Shown here piece by piece: positions 39,380 to 53,501 of a DNA stretch of 64,000 nt. This stretch comes from Sulfolobaceae archaeon. GTDB taxonomy: Archaea; Thermoproteota; Thermoprotei_A; Sulfolobales; Sulfolobaceae. The notes under the pieces were generated by a model, which saw nothing but the letters and a program-made list of their open reading frames with translations, had not been told where the DNA came from and ran no database searches. The position numbers and the translations under genes were made by a program. Each line of letters starts with the position of its first letter. Positions within the stretch are counted from its first letter, which is position 1. The stretch covers positions 64,001 through 128,000 of the forward strand of contig JAWARQ010000001.1 of assembly GCA_038893355.1 (NCBI GenBank), read 5' to 3'.

Positions 39380-39393
<14 letters not shown>
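38053..39393 (-). CDS. lysC: Aspartate kinase
   Basis: [18 protein letters not shown] and ACT domains. Confidence 0.94.
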
Positions 39394-40567
<1,174 letters not shown>

Positions 40568-40581
40568 TTTGCCTTCTTTTC

Positions 40582-40606
40582 TTAGTATGTTTCCAACCTA
40601 TTCACC
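40582..40606 (-). promoter_or_regulatory. Candidate thr leader: SD plus uORF TTG GAA ACA TAC TAA (M-E-T-Y)
   Basis: GGTGA (40606-40602) lies 5 nt before TTG (40596), with TATA TTTATAAC at 40640-40633. Confidence 0.5.
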
Positions 40607-41073: not shown

Positions 41074-41730
41074 ATGGGAAACAAGGTTGAAGAATTTATA
41101 AGGAACTGGAATGGGAAACAAGAACCTAGTATTACAGAGAGAATAAAAAGTGTATTTACCTCACAGAAGCCACTTAGATATCGTCTCATAACTGCACACT
41201 ATAAGCTTAAAACAACTATAAATAGATTAGAAAGTTACATTTCAAGATTACAAGAAAGAGATAGAACACTGTTTGAAAGAGTTGTAGAGGCACATATGAA
41301 TAAAGATACAATGAGGGCTGCGATGTATGCTAATGAAATCGCTGAGATCAGAAAGATTACAAAACAATTATTAGTTACTCAGATAGCATTAGAGCAAGTT
41401 GAGCTCCGACTTGAAACGGTAACTGAATTAGGTGATGTATTTACTAGTCTAATTCCAGTAATAGGCGTTATCAGAGAACTTAAGGCAGCAATAAGAGGTG
41501 TTATGCCAGAGCTAAGCTTTGAACTTGCTGAATTAGAGGAAGGATTACAAGAAGTTGTGTTAGAAGCTGGAGAATTCACTGGAAGTAGAATAGATTTTAG
41601 TGCAACAAGTCCAGAGGCTAGAAAGATATTAGAAGAAGCAGCAGTAATAGCAGAGCAAAGAATGAAGGAAAGATTTCCAGAACTACCGAGCATGGTTACT
41701 ACGAAACAAAATCTTTCAGCTCAAAAATAA
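41074..41730 (+). CDS. ESCRT-III/CdvB paralogue (CdvB2-like, Snf7 family)
   Basis: [24 protein letters not shown] and [14 protein letters not shown], adjacent to ppsA. Confidence 0.9.
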
Positions 41731-45639: not shown

Positions 45640-45912
45640 ATGCTGAAGAGATTACATGTAAAGGTTTATGGTGTTGTTCAAGGAGTAGGATTTAGGAGAT
45701 TTGTCCAAATTCATGCGAGAAGATTAGGATTAAAGGGTTATGCAATGAATCTTCCAGACGGTACTGTAGAGGTTGTTGCAGAGGGTTATGAGGAAGCTTT
45801 AAAGAAACTACTAGAATATTTAAAGATTGGTCCTCCTTTAGCTAAGGTTGAAAAGGTAGAATACAGATTTGAGGAATATAAAGGAGAATTTATAACTTTT
45901 GAAACTTATTAA
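45640..45912 (+). CDS. acyP: Acylphosphatase
   Basis: VQGVGFR and [13 protein letters not shown], with GAGGTGA SD before the ATG at 45640. Confidence 0.95.
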
Positions 45913-45997
45913 TTTCTAATAATTAAAAATATTTTTATAGTTTAATAAATAGCTACAAATCAAGAATCTTTATAAGCTAGAACTCTCATTTATCACA

Positions 45998-46023
45998 AGG
46001 TGCTTTTGATGCACCAATGGTAA
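45998..46023 (+). promoter_or_regulatory. Candidate trp leader: SD plus uORF ATG CAC CAA TGG TAA (M-H-Q-W) and an SD-masking hairpin
   Basis: AGGTG (45998-46002), ATG (46009), GGTGC/GCACC stem (45999-46015) and TATA TTTATAAG (45969-45976). Confidence 0.55.
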
Positions 46024-47297
46024 TGAGTGAAGATATAATTCCTAAATACTGGTACAATATTATACCAGATTTACCTAAACCATTACCACCGCCTCGAGAT
46101 CCACCAAATGCGGAGTTTTCAAGAATTGAGTTATTAAGGCAAATAATTCCTTCAGAAATTCTAAGACAACAATTTACTGTTGATAGATATATAAAAATTC
46201 CTTCAGAGGTAATTGAAAGATATCTAGATATTGGAAGACCAACTCCTTTATTTCGTGCAAAGAGATTAGAAGAGTATCTAGGGACTCCTGCGAAAATTTA
46301 TTTTAAGTATGAGGGTGCAACACCTACTGGTTCTCATAAAATTAACACTGCAATACCACAAGCTTATTATTCAATGAAGGATGGTGTAGAAGGTGTGGTA
46401 ACAGAGACAGGAGCTGGACAATGGGGTACTGCTGTGGCATTGGCAGCAAGTATGTATAATTTATCTTCTACAATATTCATGGTAAGAATAAGTTATCTTC
46501 ACAAACCTATGCGAAGAACTATAATGGAAATGTATGGCGCAAAAGTCTATCCTAGTCCTAGCGAAATTACAGAGGTCGGTAAGAGTTATCTTAAGATTAA
46601 TAAAGAACACCCTGGATCACTAGGGCTAGCTATTAGTGAAGCGATCGAATATTCATTAAAAAACAATTATAAGTATTTAATTGGCAGCGTTTTTGATGTA
46701 GTAATTCTTCATCAGAGTATAATAGGTCAAGAAACCATTAGGCAATTAGAACTCATAGGTGAAGAGCCTGATGTCTTAATAGGTTGTGTTGGCGGAGGAA
46801 GTAATTTTGGAGGATTTGTTTTTCCATTTATAGGTAATAAAAAAGGTAAAAGGTATATTGCAGTAACTTCTGCAGAAGTTCCGAAATTTAGTAAGGGTAA
46901 TTATATTTATGACTTTCCGGATTCTGCAGGTTATTTGCCAATGATAAAGATGCTATCATTAGGTAAAGACTATGTTCCACCATCAATATATTCTGGTGGT
47001 TTAAGATATCATGGTGTTGCGCCTTCTTTAAGCCTTCTAATAAAGGAAGGAATAATAGAATGGCGTGAATACTCAGAAAGAGAGATATATGAGGCTGCTA
47101 AAATATTCATGCAAACGCAAGGAATAGTTCCGGCACCAGAATCAGCACATGCAGTGAAAGCCGTTATTGACGAAGCTTTAAACGCAAGAAAAACCGGAGA
47201 GAGGATGACTATTGTATTTAATTTAAGTGGACATGGTCTTCTTGACTTAAGTAATTATCAAGAGATGAGGAAGAGATGGGAGATAATAAGCTCTTAG
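46017..47297 (+). CDS. trpB: Tryptophan synthase beta chain (TrpB2 type)
   Basis: [29 protein letters not shown] and LSGHG. Confidence 0.95.
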
Positions 47298-48022
47298 TAG
47301 TGTATAATACAGTAGGTTTTCCTGATATAGAGAATTACAATAAGGCAATGAAGATAGTTCAGGAAGAAGGTGCTGACATTGTAGAGTTAGGAATTCCACC
47401 GTTATATGCTAAGTATGATGGCCCAATTATAAGAGCTAGTTACCAAGTTGTGAGGAGTAAGTATAAGAGTGAGGAGTTATGGAAAATAATATATAATACT
47501 CGAAAAGATTTAGGAATTCCAGTGGTTTTGTTAACTTATCTTGAAGAATGGATATATAAGATTAATGAACTTTTAGATAATCTGCATAAATACGAAATTG
47601 ATGCAATATTACTTCCAGATCTTTTAATTGACTTCATTGATGAATATGAAAAATATATAAATTTATTAAAAGATAATAAAATAAAAACAGTATTATTTGT
47701 AACACCTACTATTCCAGACCATATAATTTCAAAGGTTCAAGGCCTTTCTGATTTATTCCTATATTATGGAATAAGACCAACTACTGGTGTTGAAATTCCA
47801 ATAGACATATTTACTCTTTTAAGGAGAATTAAGGGTTTCATTAAAAATAAACTTGTTGTTGGATTTGGATTAAAAAGTGAAGATGAAATTAGAAATGCAG
47901 TAGTGGCTGGTGCTGATGGAGTTGCCATAGGTTCTCTAATTATAGAATATATTAAAAATTACAATTTTAATGTTTTAAAGGAAAAAATTAAAAAAATTAG
48001 GTTGATTTTAAATGAGCTATAA
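47276..48022 (+). CDS. trpA: Tryptophan synthase alpha chain
   Basis: ELGIPP..KYDGP.I, VGFG and ADGVAIGS. Confidence 0.92.
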
Positions 48023-49052
48023 AACAATCTTAGAAAAATTAATAAATAGACAAAATTTAAGTGTAGAAGAAAGTGAAGAGATTGCAAGGGAAATAATACT
48101 TGGAAATCTACCCGAAACAATAGTTTCAGCAATCTTAGTCCTTTTAAGAGCTAAGAGAGAGACATCTGAAGAAATTGTGGGTTTTGCTCGAGCTCTAAGA
48201 AATTCTATGATCAGGGTCATTTTAGATAAACAGGCTATAGATACTGCAGGCACAGGTGGTGATGGTTATAATACCATAAATGTAAGTACAGTAGCTGCAT
48301 TACTTTTAAGTAAAGTTATTCCAGTTGCAAAACACGGAAATAGGGCAGTTTCAGGAATAAGCGGTAGTGCTGACTTTCTAGAAGGACTAGGTTATAATAT
48401 TTTAGTAAGACCAGAGGTTGCAAAGGAGCTTATCAATAAATGTAATTTTGTATTTTTATACGCACCGTTATATCATCCTGCAATGAAAAATGTAGCAAAC
48501 GTAAGGAAGCAGTTAGGTATAAAGACTATTTTTAATATACTTGGGCCTTTAAGCAATCCCGCAGAGGTAAAAGTTCAAATGAGCGGAGTTTTCTCATTAG
48601 AATACGCAGAAAAAATAAGTGAAGCTGCAAGGGAATTAGATTACGAAAGACTTTTAATATATCATGGAGAGCCTGGAATTGATGAAGTAAGTCCTATAGG
48701 AAATACTTACATATTTGAAATAAGAAAAAAGAAAGTTGAAAAATATTTAGTTAATGTAAAAGAATTTGGTATTGAGCCATTTCCTATACAGAAAGTAATT
48801 GTTAATTCCGTCGAAGAATCTATTATTAGAGTATTAAGGGCATCGCTAGGCAAAGATGATGAGGCAAGTAAATTTATATGTATAAATACTGCAATTGGGC
48901 TTTATTCTATTAATAAATGTAAAGAATTTAAAGATTGTTATGAATTATGTAATATATTGTTATCAGAATTAATAAATATAATAAGAAATATTATAAATTT
49001 AAACGGAGATTCTAATAAATTAAATAATTTATTGGTGAAAGTTAATGGTTAG
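48012..49052 (+). CDS. trpD: Anthranilate phosphoribosyltransferase
   Basis: DTAGTGGD, NVST, KHGN and GSAD. Confidence 0.96.
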   Translation: MSYKTILEKLINRQNLSVEESEEIAREIILGNLPETIVSAILVLLRAKRETSEEIVGFARALRNSMIRVILDKQAIDTAGTGGDGYNTINVSTVAALLLSKVIPVAKHGNRAVSGISGSADFLEGLGYNILVRPEVAKELINKCNFVFLYAPLYHPAMKNVANVRKQLGIKTIFNILGPLSNPAEVKVQMSGVFSLEYAEKISEAARELDYERLLIYHGEPGIDEVSPIGNTYIFEIRKKKVEKYLVNVKEFGIEPFPIQKVIVNSVEESIIRVLRASLGKDDEASKFICINTAIGLYSINKCKEFKDCYELCNILLSELINIIRNIINLNGDSNKLNNLLVKVNG

Positions 49053-49671
49053 ATTGAAAATATGCGGAAATTCTACGTTAAGTGATATAATTAATCTTGA
49101 TAAGTTTGAAGGGGTAGACTATATAGGAATAATCATTGAGGAGAATAGTCCAAGATTTACAAAGCCCGAATTTATTAATATAGTCAAAAAATTTATTAAA
49201 AAACCAATAGTAGCAGTAAAAGCTAAAGGTAATGTAGAAGAAATAATTAAGAAGGCTGAAGATGCAGATTATATTCAAATACATAGAGTTCTTCAAGATT
49301 ATGAGTTAGAACTTTTAAGTAGTTATTACTCTAACAAGAAAATCATACTTTATGTTCCTGCTGACATTTCATATAAAAATTATTTAAATAAAGTTATGAA
49401 ATTAGATTTTAAAATACTAATTGACGTATTAATTAAGGGTAGATCTATAGAAGTTTCCCAAATACGATCATTAGTTGGAGATAAGATTGCAGACGAAAGA
49501 GTAGGAGTAGCAGGTAAGATTGAGATTGAAAATATTGGCAAATTTCTTGAGTTAGAACCGGGATGGATAGATATATCTAGTAGTGTAGAAATCTACCCAG
49601 GTAAAAAGGATATTAATAAGATTAAAAAACTTATTGAGGTGATAAAAAATAGAAATTCATCCAATTTCTAA
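49045..49671 (+). CDS. trpF: Phosphoribosylanthranilate isomerase
   Basis: KICG, SPR, QIH and DISSSVE..PGKKD. Confidence 0.92.
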   Translation: MVRLKICGNSTLSDIINLDKFEGVDYIGIIIEENSPRFTKPEFINIVKKFIKKPIVAVKAKGNVEEIIKKAEDADYIQIHRVLQDYELELLSSYYSNKKIILYVPADISYKNYLNKVMKLDFKILIDVLIKGRSIEVSQIRSLVGDKIADERVGVAGKIEIENIGKFLELEPGWIDISSSVEIYPGKKDINKIKKLIEVIKNRNSSNF

Positions 49672-50953
49672 TTTTGCCCCACCTTACGAAGTTTTTAGAT
49701 GTATAGAGGAAAGAGAAAACATAGCAGCATTGTTGGAAAGTGGTGAGGGACCAGAACATATAACTAGATATAGTATTATAGCATGGGGAAGTAAAGAATA
49801 TATAAAGTTTAAGAATGGTAAAGCATATGGTTCTATTTTGGGTGAATTCGATGATCCTTTAATACCATTATTTAAATTATTGGAAAAAGCTCCATATGTT
49901 ACTTCTCTACCTGGAATATTTAGAGGTGGAATAATAGGTTACTTTTCATATGATATGGTAAGATATTGGGAAAGGTTACCAAATATTACAACTGATCTTG
50001 ACAATTGGCCTGATTTTGAATTCTTTATTCCACAGAATTTTATTATTTATGATCATGCAGAGGGTAAAGTATATACTTATGGTGAAATTCCTCAACTTTC
50101 TTCATGTAGAGAAATTGGTGATATTAAATCAAAATTAATTGAAGAATCTCTAAATAGGGAAGAATATGAGAAAGCAGTAGCTAATGCATTAGAGTATATT
50201 CGATCTGGATATATTTTTCAAGTAGTAATTTCTAGATTTTATAAATATGAAATTAATGGAGATCCAATGAAATTCTACTATAGATTAAGAAAGACAAATC
50301 CTTCACCTTATATGTTTTATTTAAAGTTTAATGAAAGAAGTCTTATTGGATCTAGTCCAGAAACTTTATTTAGAGTTAAAGGCTCTATTGTTGAAACATA
50401 CCCTATAGCAGGCACTAGACCAAGGGGACGGGATGTAGAAGAGGATCTTAAATTAGAGGCTGAGTTAATTAATTCAGAAAAGGATAAAGCAGAGCATTTA
50501 ATGTTAGTTGACTTAGCAAGAAATGATTTAGGTAAAGTATGTGTAGCAGGCTCTGTAAAGGTACCAGAATTAATGTATATTGAAAAATATAGCCATGTCC
50601 AACATCTAGTAAGTAAGGTAATAGGAATTTTAAGGAAGAATAGTAATGCATTTGATGTTCTAAAAGCAACTTTTCCTGCTGGAACAGTTTCTGGTGCACC
50701 TAAACCAATGGCGATGAAAATAATTGAAGAGTTTGAAAATTATAGACGTGGACCTTATGCAGGCGCAGTAGGGTTCTTCTCAAAAAATGGTGATTCTGAA
50801 TTTGCTATTTTAATCCGTAGTGGTTTTATAATTCATAATATACTCAGAATTCAAGCAGGTGCAGGAATTGTATACGATTCTGAACCTTATCTGGAATATC
50901 TTGAAACAGAGCATAAATTAAAAGCATTAAAGGTAGCATTAGGTGTTGAATAA
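49649..50953 (+). CDS. trpE: Anthranilate synthase component I (apparent ATA start)
   Basis: The conserved (M)[20 protein letters not shown]-terminus lies in frame upstream of the tracked [25 protein letters not shown] and [10 protein letters not shown] are present. Confidence 0.95.
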
Positions 50954-51534
50954 TGGATTTAACTCTAGTAATAGATAATTATGATAGTTTTGTATATAAT
51001 ATAGTTCAATATGTAGCTGAGCTGGGGTCTAGACCAATAGTTATTAGGAACGATGAAATTTCATTAAGCGGTGTTGAAAGGATTGAACCAGATAGAATTA
51101 TAATTTCTCCAGGTCCAGGAACTCCAGAGAAGAAGGAGGATATTGGGATAGTAATTGATGTTATAAGAAAGCTTGGTAAAAGGATTCCGATTCTTGGAAT
51201 ATGTTTAGGTCATCAGGCGATAGGTTATGCTTATGGTGCTAGAATAAGAAGGGCTAAAAAAATATATCATGGCAAAATTAGTAAAATAAAACATTTTCAA
51301 AATTCTGTATTATTTACTGAAATACCAGAGATATTTGAGGCAACGCGTTATCATAGTTTAGTTATAGATAATCCTACTGAATTGTTAAAAATTACTGCAA
51401 TATCTTTAGAGGATAATGAAATAATGGGAATAGAACATAGAGAATATAAAATCTTTGGCGTCCAGTTTCATCCAGAAAGTATAGGAACCTCAGTTGGTTA
51501 TAAAATATTTTACAACTTTTTTAATAGAGTATAA
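50953..51534 (+). CDS. trpG: Anthranilate synthase component II
   Basis: DNYDSF, SPGPG, GICLGHQ and QFHPES. Confidence 0.95.
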
Positions 51535-51535
51535 T

Positions 51536-52288
51536 ATGCCTAGATATCTTAAAGGTTGGCTAAGAGACGTAGTTGAAAATGCAATTAATAGAGAATATAT
51601 TTCTAAGACTAGGGAGAGACCAATTTTTTCTCTATCATGGAGCATTAAAAAAAGGGTTAACGAGGGAAAAACTGCAGTTATAGCAGAGTATAAGAAAAAA
51701 TCACCTTCATCAGGTCAGATATCTAATATAGATCCTATAGAATATGTGAAATTTATGGAAAAGGCAGGAGTTGCTGGAATAAGTGTTGTAACCGAGCCAA
51801 AATATTTTGGTGGTTCTTATTATGTATTTGAAAGTATATCAAAAATAGTAAATATACCAATATTATTTAAAGATTTTATAGTCACAGAAAAGCAGATAGA
51901 TACTGCATATAACCTAGGAGCGGATGCTGTACTTCTAATAGTCAAGATACTTACAGAGAGAGAATTATTTAATTTAATTGAATATTGTAAAACTTATAAG
52001 ATCGAAACAATTGTAGAAATTAGTAATAAAGAAGAGCTCGAAATAGCACTTTCAGCAGGTGCTAAAATAATTGGGGTAAATGCTAGAAATTTAGAGACAT
52101 TTGAAATTAATATAAATAAAGTAAAGGAAATTTTAAGTGAAATACCTAAAGATGTGATAAAAATAGCAGAAAGCGGAATAACTTCACGTGAAGAAATAGA
52201 AGAATTAAGAAAAGCAGGGGCTGACGCCTTTCTTATAGGTACATCTTTACTCAGAGAACCTAAAAAAATAAAAGAGTTTATTAGTTGA
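51536..52288 (+). CDS. trpC: Indole-3-glycerol-phosphate synthase
   Basis: MPRYLKGWL, IAEYK.KSPS, KDFI and AESGI. Confidence 0.96.
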   Translation: MPRYLKGWLRDVVENAINREYISKTRERPIFSLSWSIKKRVNEGKTAVIAEYKKKSPSSGQISNIDPIEYVKFMEKAGVAGISVVTEPKYFGGSYYVFESISKIVNIPILFKDFIVTEKQIDTAYNLGADAVLLIVKILTERELFNLIEYCKTYKIETIVEISNKEELEIALSAGAKIIGVNARNLETFEININKVKEILSEIPKDVIKIAESGITSREEIEELRKAGADAFLIGTSLLREPKKIKEFIS

Positions 52289-52298
52289 ATAAATTGGT

Positions 52299-53501
52299 AT
52301 GAAACCAATTCAGAGAGTAAATAAGAGCTTTAATCAGTTAACTGGAGAAAGTACTTTACTTTACAACGAGATAGCAAGAGAAGTAAGTAAAAGTAAAGGT
52401 TTAAAAATAATTAATTTCGGAATCGGTCAGCCTGATATTCCAACTTTTGTGAGAATAAGAGAAGCTGCAAAAAAGGCTTTAGATGAAGGTTTTACTGGCT
52501 ATACTTCTGCCTATGGTATAGAAGAGTTAAGATATAAGATAGCTGAATATATTACATCTCGAACTGATCAGAAAATATCTAAGGACGAAGTAATAATTAC
52601 TGCAGGTGCGAAGACAGCACTGTTTATGACCTTTCAACTTTATATAGAACCAGGTGATGAGGTAATTCTCTTTGATCCCACATTTTACTCTTATGCAGAA
52701 GTTGTTAAGTTATTAGGTGGAATTCCAGTATATTCTAAACTTCGTTGGGGAGAAGATGGTTTCCATATAGACTTTGATGATCTATCAAGTAAGATCTCTA
52801 ATAAGACGAAAATGATTGTTTACAATAATCCACACAATCCTACTGGTTCTGTATTTAGTAAGTCAGAAACTAGAAACTTAGTAGAATTATGTAGAGAGAA
52901 GGGTATAATTTTAGTTTCTGACGAGATATATGATCATTTTGTATATGATACAGATTTTTATAGTGTTCTAAATGAAAGTGATTGGAGAGATTTTATAATT
53001 TATATTAACGGATTTAGTAAAACTTTTTCAATGACTGGATGGAGATTAGGATTTATAATTGCATCGAGCGATGTAATAAAAAAATTAGGAGTATTAGCTG
53101 CAAATATTTATACTTCACCAGTCAGCTTTGTACAAAAAGGTGCTTTAGAAGCCTTCTTCTCTATTGAGGAAGTAAAAAATATGATAAGGTTATTTAGAGA
53201 GAGAAGAGATATTATGTATAATGAATTAAGTAAGATTAATGGTATAAAGGTAAGTAAGCCGAATGGGACTTTTTATATGTTTCCTAATATCTCTAAGGTT
53301 CTAGAAGCTGCATCTCTTTCATCATCTAAAGAATTTTCAATAAAACTTATTGAAAGTAAAGGTGTTATAACAATACCGGGTGAAGTTTTTCCTTTAGATG
53401 TAGGTAAAGTTTTCATTAGATTAAGTTATGCAGTGGATAAATCTACAATAATTGAGGGAGTATCTAAAATTAGAGAGTTTATTGAAGAGATTACTCAGTA
53501 A
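52299..53501 (+). CDS. aspC: Aspartate aminotransferase (class I PLP)
   Basis: [13 protein letters not shown] and [13 protein letters not shown]. Confidence 0.88.

Follow-up and report, generated by a model that had tools for sequence, protein, structure and literature searches.

Why should the first gene of a tryptophan operon begin inside a four-codon open reading frame that ends on a tryptophan codon, and could this arrangement be the switch by which the operon responds to its end product? Archaeal trp operons are controlled by TrpY in Methanothermobacter and by Tar in Thermococcus, the latter acting also on aro operons, and these differ from the arrangement described here in being protein regulators of transcription. 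The Trp-2 codon of TrpY is said to have been proposed once as a translational sensor. Both regulators are reported to be nearly missing from Crenarchaeota, where a third mechanism has been postulated (PMC6737238). From sequence comparison we propose, with a probability of roughly 70%, that the trp operon is switched on when tryptophan is scarce by a -1 frameshift gate at a hungry codon. If true, this would supply the missing trp and aro control of the Sulfolobales and their relatives, which have neither TrpY nor Tar (PMC6737238).

Architecture of the trp Operon Head

The window, that is the whole stretch of 64,000 nucleotides analyzed here, comes from an AT-rich Sulfolobaceae genome of 1.40 Mb that is 84% complete and whose closest named records include Caldisphaera, Stygiolobus, Metallosphaera and Sulfolobus. 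Its trp operon (46017-52288, + strand) reads trpB-A-D-F-E-G-C, which is the order given for S. solfataricus in PMC1854888; trpB, A, D and E were confirmed by profile, whereas trpF, trpG and trpC were identified by gene order and sequence, without a profile scan. The first gene, trpB (46017..47297, +), is of the TrpB2 type by profile match. Upstream of it a Shine-Dalgarno (SD) sequence, AGGTG at 45998..46002 and complementary to the 16S 3' end of the same genome (GGATCACCTC), is followed after 6 nt by the upstream open reading frame (uORF) ATG CAC CAA TGG TAA (M-H-Q-W, 46009..46023, +). Its TGG lies at 46018-20 and its TAA at 46021-23, and the trpB ATG (46017-19) is in the -1 frame. A first-pass annotation had described this arrangement, including the reading of the TGG as trpB ATG in the -1 frame, and every base is as it stated. 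It had also pointed to a second in-frame trpB ATG over the uORF stop (TAATG, 46023..46025); this overlap is present but private to this genome, occurring in 1 of 164 distinct loci that carry the element. Spare in-frame uORF starts are possible at TTG 46006 and GTG 46000. A leaderless uORF from GTG 46000 would suit the Sulfolobaceae trpB genes but fails at loci led by GGGG or GAGG, so that GTG 46000 is not the conserved start. An N-terminal extension of the trpB frame itself was also rejected, since what is conserved is the nucleotide sequence and not the residues it would encode, and since that frame has no start in the upstream regions of relatives.

Where does the transcript start? A TATA box (TTTATAAG, 45969..45976, +) lies 22 nt 5' of GGTG and is similarly placed in relatives. 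In this genome the TATA-to-ATG distance of leaderless-type starts peaks at 28-31 nt, and transcription of the trp operon is therefore predicted to begin at 45998-45999, 29-30 nt after the first base of the TATA box and on the SD, which would give a leader of 18-19 nt. Among the 164 element loci the usual position of the TATA box is 45-55 nt before the main ATG, with a peak at 47-49 nt and just six matches at 26-31 nt. A leaderless transcript beginning at 46017, raised in the first-pass annotation as the counter-case, is opposed by this computed spacing. The distances from the SD are equally regular. The usual GGTG-to-ATG spacing in this genome is 5-8 nt, 14 nt being found in 2 of 117 cases. 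Across the element loci the SD lies 5-7 nt from the uORF start (144/148), 13-16 nt from the main ATG (157/163; 14 nt in the window), which is outside the norm of the genome, and 10-14 nt from the putative shift site (160/163; 11 nt in the window); for SD-stimulated -1 shifts PMC5009743 gives a spacing of 9-14 nt. Judged by these spacings the SD is placed for the uORF and not for trpB.

The SD and the uORF start could in addition be occluded by a weak 5-bp hairpin (45999..46015, +), in which GGTGC (45999-46003) pairs with GCACC (46011-15); its folding energy at 37 C lies between -8.6 and -8.8 kcal/mol, with a z of about -2.0 to -2.3. The pairing proposed at the outset thus exists, but it is marginal at growth temperature, with -1.0 kcal/mol left at 75 C and the hairpin unfolded at 85 C, and the 4-bp SD stem is complete in just 90 of 157 loci, in 0/8 trpA heads and in 0/4 trpD heads, so that the hairpin is accessory at most. 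SD-to-CCA segments fold with a mean energy of -4.2 kcal/mol as compared to -3.1 kcal/mol when codon 2 is randomized, a difference among kin that are not independent. A longer hairpin spanning 45985-46030 was dropped; it needs a transcription start upstream of the predicted one and retains -1.2 kcal/mol at 75 C. Within 45999-46040 nothing folds 3' of the shift site, and no Rfam model matched 45800-46200 at gathering score.

Conservation of the Element

Is this arrangement kept in relatives? The pattern DTG-NN-CCAATGG-stop occurs once in the 1.40-Mb genome, at trpB, and together with an SD it is found in 102 of 201 genomes of the order, as compared to 24 matches in 19 genomes for the reversed pattern, which were tallied by hand from the results table. 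The best TrpB matches were drawn from these 201 genomes and from 401 genomes of the phylum. All 40 trpB operon heads among them (27 Sulfolobaceae, our genome included, 3 from family f9, 9 from f5 and 1 from genome G464) carry an SD, an in-frame start and C-CAA-TGG. The start codon itself is exchanged freely: at position -8 the first 30 trpB heads have TTG (20), ATG (4) or GTG (3), the remaining 3 having ATG or TTG one codon upstream, and across all loci the uORF starts with ATG (83), TTG (59) or GTG (6), a start at -11 being found in the 16 loci without one at -8. The script that collected the 164 loci demanded a start, whereas the gene-centered sets show one in 40/40 trpB and 46/46 transketolase (tkt) heads. 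Of the 77 other trpB2 loci, none of them of the operon-head type, 44 passed the element filter and 33 failed. The element was not found at six Ignicoccus-type trpB2 loci (L040-45), at any of the five non-operon trpB2 paralogs of Sulfolobaceae (L046-50) or at trpB2 of Thermococcus, methanogens and bacteria; loci without it also include operon-internal copies.

The first-pass annotation had cautioned that any gene beginning ATG-G yields TGG in the +1 frame and had regarded the SD-led upstream ATG and the immediate stop as the informative parts. The caution is answered by the base at +4, which is G in 40/40 trpB and 46/46 tkt heads as compared to 199 of 898 starts in the genome, although the headed genes can have any of the five GNN amino acids at codon 2. 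Of the 898 ATG starts just 2 are preceded by CCA, and the full element stands at two places, the head of the trp operon and that of the aro operon. As to the informative parts, upstream start and SD are conserved, but the stop is not immediate: it follows 0-12 codons after TGG, 0-1 in most sets and 9-12 in 34 of 37 transketolase loci. There is strong support for the view that the M-x-Q-W uORF, with its SD and its overlap with the start of trpB, is a conserved control element linked to tryptophan, and on the evidence of its conservation we conclude that the Trp element is a real regulatory element, the relatives compared here not being statistically independent.

In several lineages the element appears in a decayed form or an unexpected place. 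Sulfolobales-type trp operons in genomes labeled Nitrososphaerales or Conexivisphaerales (L068, L071, L073, L074) keep remnants of the motif, have lost the TGG and look leaderless. In genus g12 the element is decayed (L152, L154, L170), codon 3 of L154 being TAA, which leaves a uORF of two codons with a stop that overlaps the ATG of trpB2. A locus labeled Methanobacteriota (L069) holds a Sulfolobaceae-type acyP-trpBADFE block with a full element, and its label or bin may be wrong.

Other Operons Headed by the Element

A scan of the genome for a TATA box, an SD and a short out-of-frame uORF lying across a gene start gave four matches, two of which are the element, namely those at trpB and at transketolase. 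The latter (C2 about 53290-53345, - strand, locus L364) heads an operon that also holds chorismate mutase/prephenate dehydrogenase, DAHP synthase, aroB and aroC. A transketolase orthologue is present in 46 of 47 Sulfolobaceae genomes, and all 46 have C-CAA-TGG and a start at -8 or -11 upstream (45 passed the stricter script). Moreover, 70 loci around pattern matches were read, which revealed the element, besides trpB2, before trpD (4 loci), before a cluster with a PaaK-like CoA ligase (17 loci: L236-L245, L247-L249, L257-L259, L263) and before a ferredoxin-like subunit with an aldehyde:ferredoxin oxidoreductase (10 loci: L232, L234, L235, L246, L250-L255). A sodium symporter lies behind the ligase where the locus reaches that far, L236 stopping at a contig edge past the gene start, and an SNF transporter follows the oxidoreductase in L235 and L255; some loci of the oxidoreductase type sit in genomes without a TrpB match (e.g. 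G015). In a second order, that of G315 and probably Thermoproteales, the loose pattern is overall no richer than the control, and only eight loci in which it heads trpA were counted. The trpD, trpA, ligase and oxidoreductase sets were all found through the pattern itself. About 15 matches were dropped as chance, being gene-internal or without a gene behind, among them ones that lie inside HMG-CoA-reductase-like, chorismate-synthase-like and other genes (e.g. L208, L214, L226, L229, L231, L264-L271, L273).

Constraint on the Putative Shift Site

Why is the codon before TGG preceded by a base identical to its own first base? In 158 of 164 distinct loci the site reads C-CAA and in the remaining six G-GAA. 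This site and its distance from the SD are informative features that the first-pass annotation had not highlighted. Codon 2 codes for seven different amino acids, and it ends in C wherever CAA follows (158 loci) and in G wherever GAA follows (6 loci), C-ending codons making up some 20% of the codons in this genome. CAG was never seen as codon 3 among the 164 loci, and there is one C-CGA variant (L399). The G-GAA form belongs to one clade of nine trpB2 genes in a quick tree and would thus represent a single event. A search for a base other than C before codon 3, in which 30 loci were read, gave no trp-gene heads except the G-GAA trpB2 genes; most of these loci were dropped, for example L283 (T-CAA, no gene behind) and L380 (internal). 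L283 and L284 have an SD-led GTG TAT CAA TGG after an AT-rich stretch with no gene on the same strand downstream, which is probably chance. The CC of the site can in part be explained by pairing with the SD.

Further evidence comes from 20 loci (3 trpD, 17 ligase) in which the next gene starts 95-184 nt downstream of the element. In these leaders 6 stops fall in the frame of the overlapped ATG as compared to 56 and 70 in the other two frames; the former is open throughout in 15 of 20 loci, with 2.5 expected, and in 17 of 20 the resulting relay ORF ends within 13 nt of the next start. The relay ORFs are 16-64 codons long and their peptide sequence is not conserved. Such a pattern is what selection on the passage of ribosomes would look like at the level of sequence.

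A Threonine-Codon Twin at thrC

A scan of the genome for the same layout with any codon in place of TGG gave nine matches, five of them with a TATA box, and in three of these five the codon matches the pathway: Trp at trpB, Trp at tkt-aro and Thr at thrC. The twin element of the thr operon (40582..40606, region to 40640, - strand) consists of an SD, GGTGA, and TTG GAA ACA TAC TAA, with G-GAA at 40594-40591 and the Thr codon ACA at 40590-40588 (both -). The thrC gene (39380..40567, -; TIGR00260 above cut-off) lies in the -1 frame of the twin uORF, open from 40594, and is followed by an aspartokinase-like and an asd-like gene, both named from sequence. TTG-GAA-AC was found in all 30 loci fetched of 47 matches, the SD being 10 nt from the site in 29 of the 30; in the window this spacing is 8 nt, below the 9-14 nt range. 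In the shifted frame the twin reads GGA AAC, so there is no ATG at the shift site. In four of the 30 thrC loci neither ATG, GTG nor TTG occurs ahead of the first conserved Cys; the earliest of these start codons is codon 51, 51, 24 and beyond 60, and three of these four have a possible ATT or CTG start, whereas the other 26 loci, including the window, have a normal start 2-9 codons downstream. The other any-codon matches (C1 276113 (+), 327051 (+) and C2 177917 (-)) carry Tyr, Ile and Glu codons without an evident match of codon and pathway and are probably chance. Divergent from the thr operon the window holds a 218-aa ORF (41074-41730, +) that we take to resemble a CdvB/ESCRT-III protein.

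Proposed Mechanism and Alternatives

How could such an element sense tryptophan? The trp mRNA would start at its ribosome-binding site and ribosomes would begin at the four-codon uORF, finishing at its stop as long as tryptophan is plentiful. When charged tRNA-Trp runs short, the ribosome would pause on TGG, slip back by one base on C-CAA and enter trpB, the putative shift site and sensing codon (46014..46020, +) then reading CCA ATG G. It could be imagined that a single tRNA slips in the P-site, tRNA-Gln moving from CAA to CCA with its first and third positions still paired, and that the same SD, now 11 nt behind, assists the slip. The product would be a TrpB with three extra N-terminal residues, the MHQ extension already listed in the first-pass annotation, and the signal would presumably reach trpA and the genes beyond by translational coupling, possibly also by polarity. 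Since a ribosome stalled on TGG covers the trpB AUG, induction by starvation requires that this very ribosome enters trpB. Moreover, XAA followed by TGG automatically creates the overlapping ATG. The variable distance of the stop fits a simple exit better than a signal for re-initiation. Against a frameshift it has to be said that re-pairing on CCA leaves a central U:C mismatch, that the site is not a standard X-XXY-YYZ heptamer, and that the -1 frame begins with ATG in every Trp element, which makes initiation there possible at trpB; the argument against such direct initiation is borrowed by analogy from the thr twin.

Alternatively, the uORF may sense tryptophan through a stalled ribosome that sheds its peptide and restarts at the overlapping AUG, yielding TrpB with its annotated N-terminus. 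The ATG always lies under the stall site, and very short peptidyl-tRNAs drop off easily. Re-initiation at overlaps is furthermore frequent among archaea, and genomes of the Sulfolobus type employ SDs for it (PMC6728339). We nevertheless hold this explanation to be unlikely. It leaves unexplained the X-XAA constraint and why CAG-TGG is not found, a combination that would provide a GTG to start from; the SD favors the uORF start over an AUG 14 nt away; and the thr twin has no start codon at its shift site. With a -1 slip in the P-site the X-XAA rule is explained along with the distance of the SD, the open relay frames and those thrC genes that lack a start, whereas re-initiation explains only the A of the overlapping ATG. 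A mechanism resembling attenuation, in which translation of or stalling on the uORF sets the SD hairpin or the access of the termination factor aCPSF1 to the nascent RNA, while a separate initiation at the trpB AUG produces TrpB, appears quite improbable to us. The hairpin is present and the SD-to-CCA segments fold somewhat better than randomized ones, albeit among related loci, and aCPSF1 acts on promoter-proximal complexes in Saccharolobus (PMC8448881). A ribosome stalled on TGG would, however, cover the trpB AUG and thus cause repression, the opposite of what is needed; nearly half of the loci and all trpA and trpD heads lack the full stem, which is marginal at 75 C; and a leader of 18 nt is too short for alternative structures. 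No Rfam model reached its gathering score either. Beyond a frameshift gate, polarity may still play a part.

Could CCAATGG instead be the binding site of a tryptophan-responsive DNA- or RNA-binding protein, the uORF being incidental? CCA-A-TGG is palindromic, and the palindrome is extended by the next base pair in 43 of 158 loci as compared to 32 in shuffled sequences (p 0.0075, with kin not independent). Crenarchaeota also are without the known regulators TrpY and Tar (PMC6737238). There is no extension at further positions, however, the G-GAA variants break the palindrome, and an operator would call for none of the other features, namely start codons that are exchanged, an SD at a set distance, relay frames kept open and a Thr-codon twin, all of which makes this explanation very doubtful. 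That the arrangement is due to chance, or is a constitutive initiation context without a sensing role, is hardly credible to us: it is true that any start of the form ATG-G brings a +1-frame TGG with it and that AT-rich DNA is full of stops, but neither accounts for the rarity of CCA before ATG starts, for the placement of both full elements before the trp and aro operons or for the lack of the element at all five non-operon trpB2 paralogs of Sulfolobaceae.

Extending the frameshift reading beyond trpB, we suggest with moderate confidence that Thermoproteota run amino acid biosynthesis through a modular hungry-codon -1 gate, composed of an SD, a start, an imperfect X-XAA and one sensing codon. 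It would comprise a Trp regulon (trp, aro and the salvage and transport of aryl acids, some reached through relay ORFs) and a Thr gate at thrC; annotated starts would be by-products and the enzymes trans-frame fusions.

Relation to Known Systems

Which known systems come closest? The autoregulation of prfB shares a short first ORF, a slow sensor codon in the A-site, an SD-stimulated slip in the P-site and a product that relieves the shortage (PMC5009743). It differs in that the shift predicted here is -1 and not +1, occurs at a sense codon for the end product of the pathway and not at a stop codon, and has an SD 10-14 nt and not 3 nt upstream, which doubles as the SD of initiation. The link of the A-site sensor to the downstream product is one of association, Trp codons standing at trp and aro and Thr codons at thrC, and the Trp/Thr layout is met again at many operons, the codon being exchanged. 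In sites of the dnaX/IS type (E. coli dnaX, IS elements) the SD precedes the shift site by 9-14 nt, and in one IS element a single SD serves both initiation and shift (PMC5009743 and PMC8211752), but the heptamer X-XXY-YYZ is absent here, X-XAA allowing two of three pairs for one tRNA. One-tRNA slippage at hungry codons likewise involves a P-site slip with an empty A-site under starvation (PMC5009743 and PMC8211752), and the 2016 review knows of no example of hungry-codon shifting that makes starvation-specific proteins (PMC5009743). The gate would, if true, be a natural and productive use of such shifting. In the same archaeal family a -1 shift occurs in fucA1 of S. solfataricus, for which P-site slippage is proposed as one route; this site differs in being a heptamer inside a gene without known signal, and as of 2021 no other archaeal -1 case was listed (PMC8211752). 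The present elements, if confirmed as shift sites, would add many to this single case.

Similarity is also found to leader-based control, of which short leaderless ORFs that sense Cys in mycobacteria are one instance, likewise having codons of the regulated amino acid (10.1101/834739). Overlaps for termination and re-initiation (ATGA/TGATG) are not what is found here, since the stop lies 0-12 codons past TGG and TAATG occurs in 1 of 164 loci; relay ORFs, by contrast, do end at the start of the next gene. In attenuation of the E. coli trpL type a short leader ORF with codons of the regulated amino acid precedes the biosynthetic operon. The Trp element has in common with it the leader ORF with a codon of the pathway, but this is one Trp codon and not a run, the uORF overlaps trpB, there is no terminator or antiterminator in the predicted leader of 18-19 nt with its one weak hairpin, and the predicted output is a change of frame. 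The Trp element thus works like prfB autoregulation joined to a trpL-type leader, yet it falls outside both definitions and outside that of the dnaX-type heptamer.

A description of the Trp element or of such control was not found in the literature searched, which left most subscription journals outside. Supplements of genome-wide studies of frameshifts or start sites may list such sites; a trpB entry is absent from three supplement files of PMC8448881, and the main text of PMC3711429 does not mention tryptophan or threonine synthase.

The Element as a Search Pattern

The element is 25 nt long, and the family across which it is present has genetically tractable, harmless members. Used as a search pattern, it would correct the annotation of start sites and predicts roles related to tryptophan for uncharacterized clusters of CoA ligases, oxidoreductases and transporters. 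That tryptophan is tied to the ligase and oxidoreductase clusters is presumed from pathways of aryl-acid salvage; no paper linking these clusters to tryptophan was found in the literature searched. The PaaK-like ligase with its symporter is accordingly a candidate locus for the salvage of indoleacetate, a substrate suggested by this presumed tie. In two of the ligase loci, L257 and L258, the relay ORF holds a second, decayed copy of SD, start and CGC CAA, followed by TAT instead of TGG, which is possibly a second gate tuned to Tyr.
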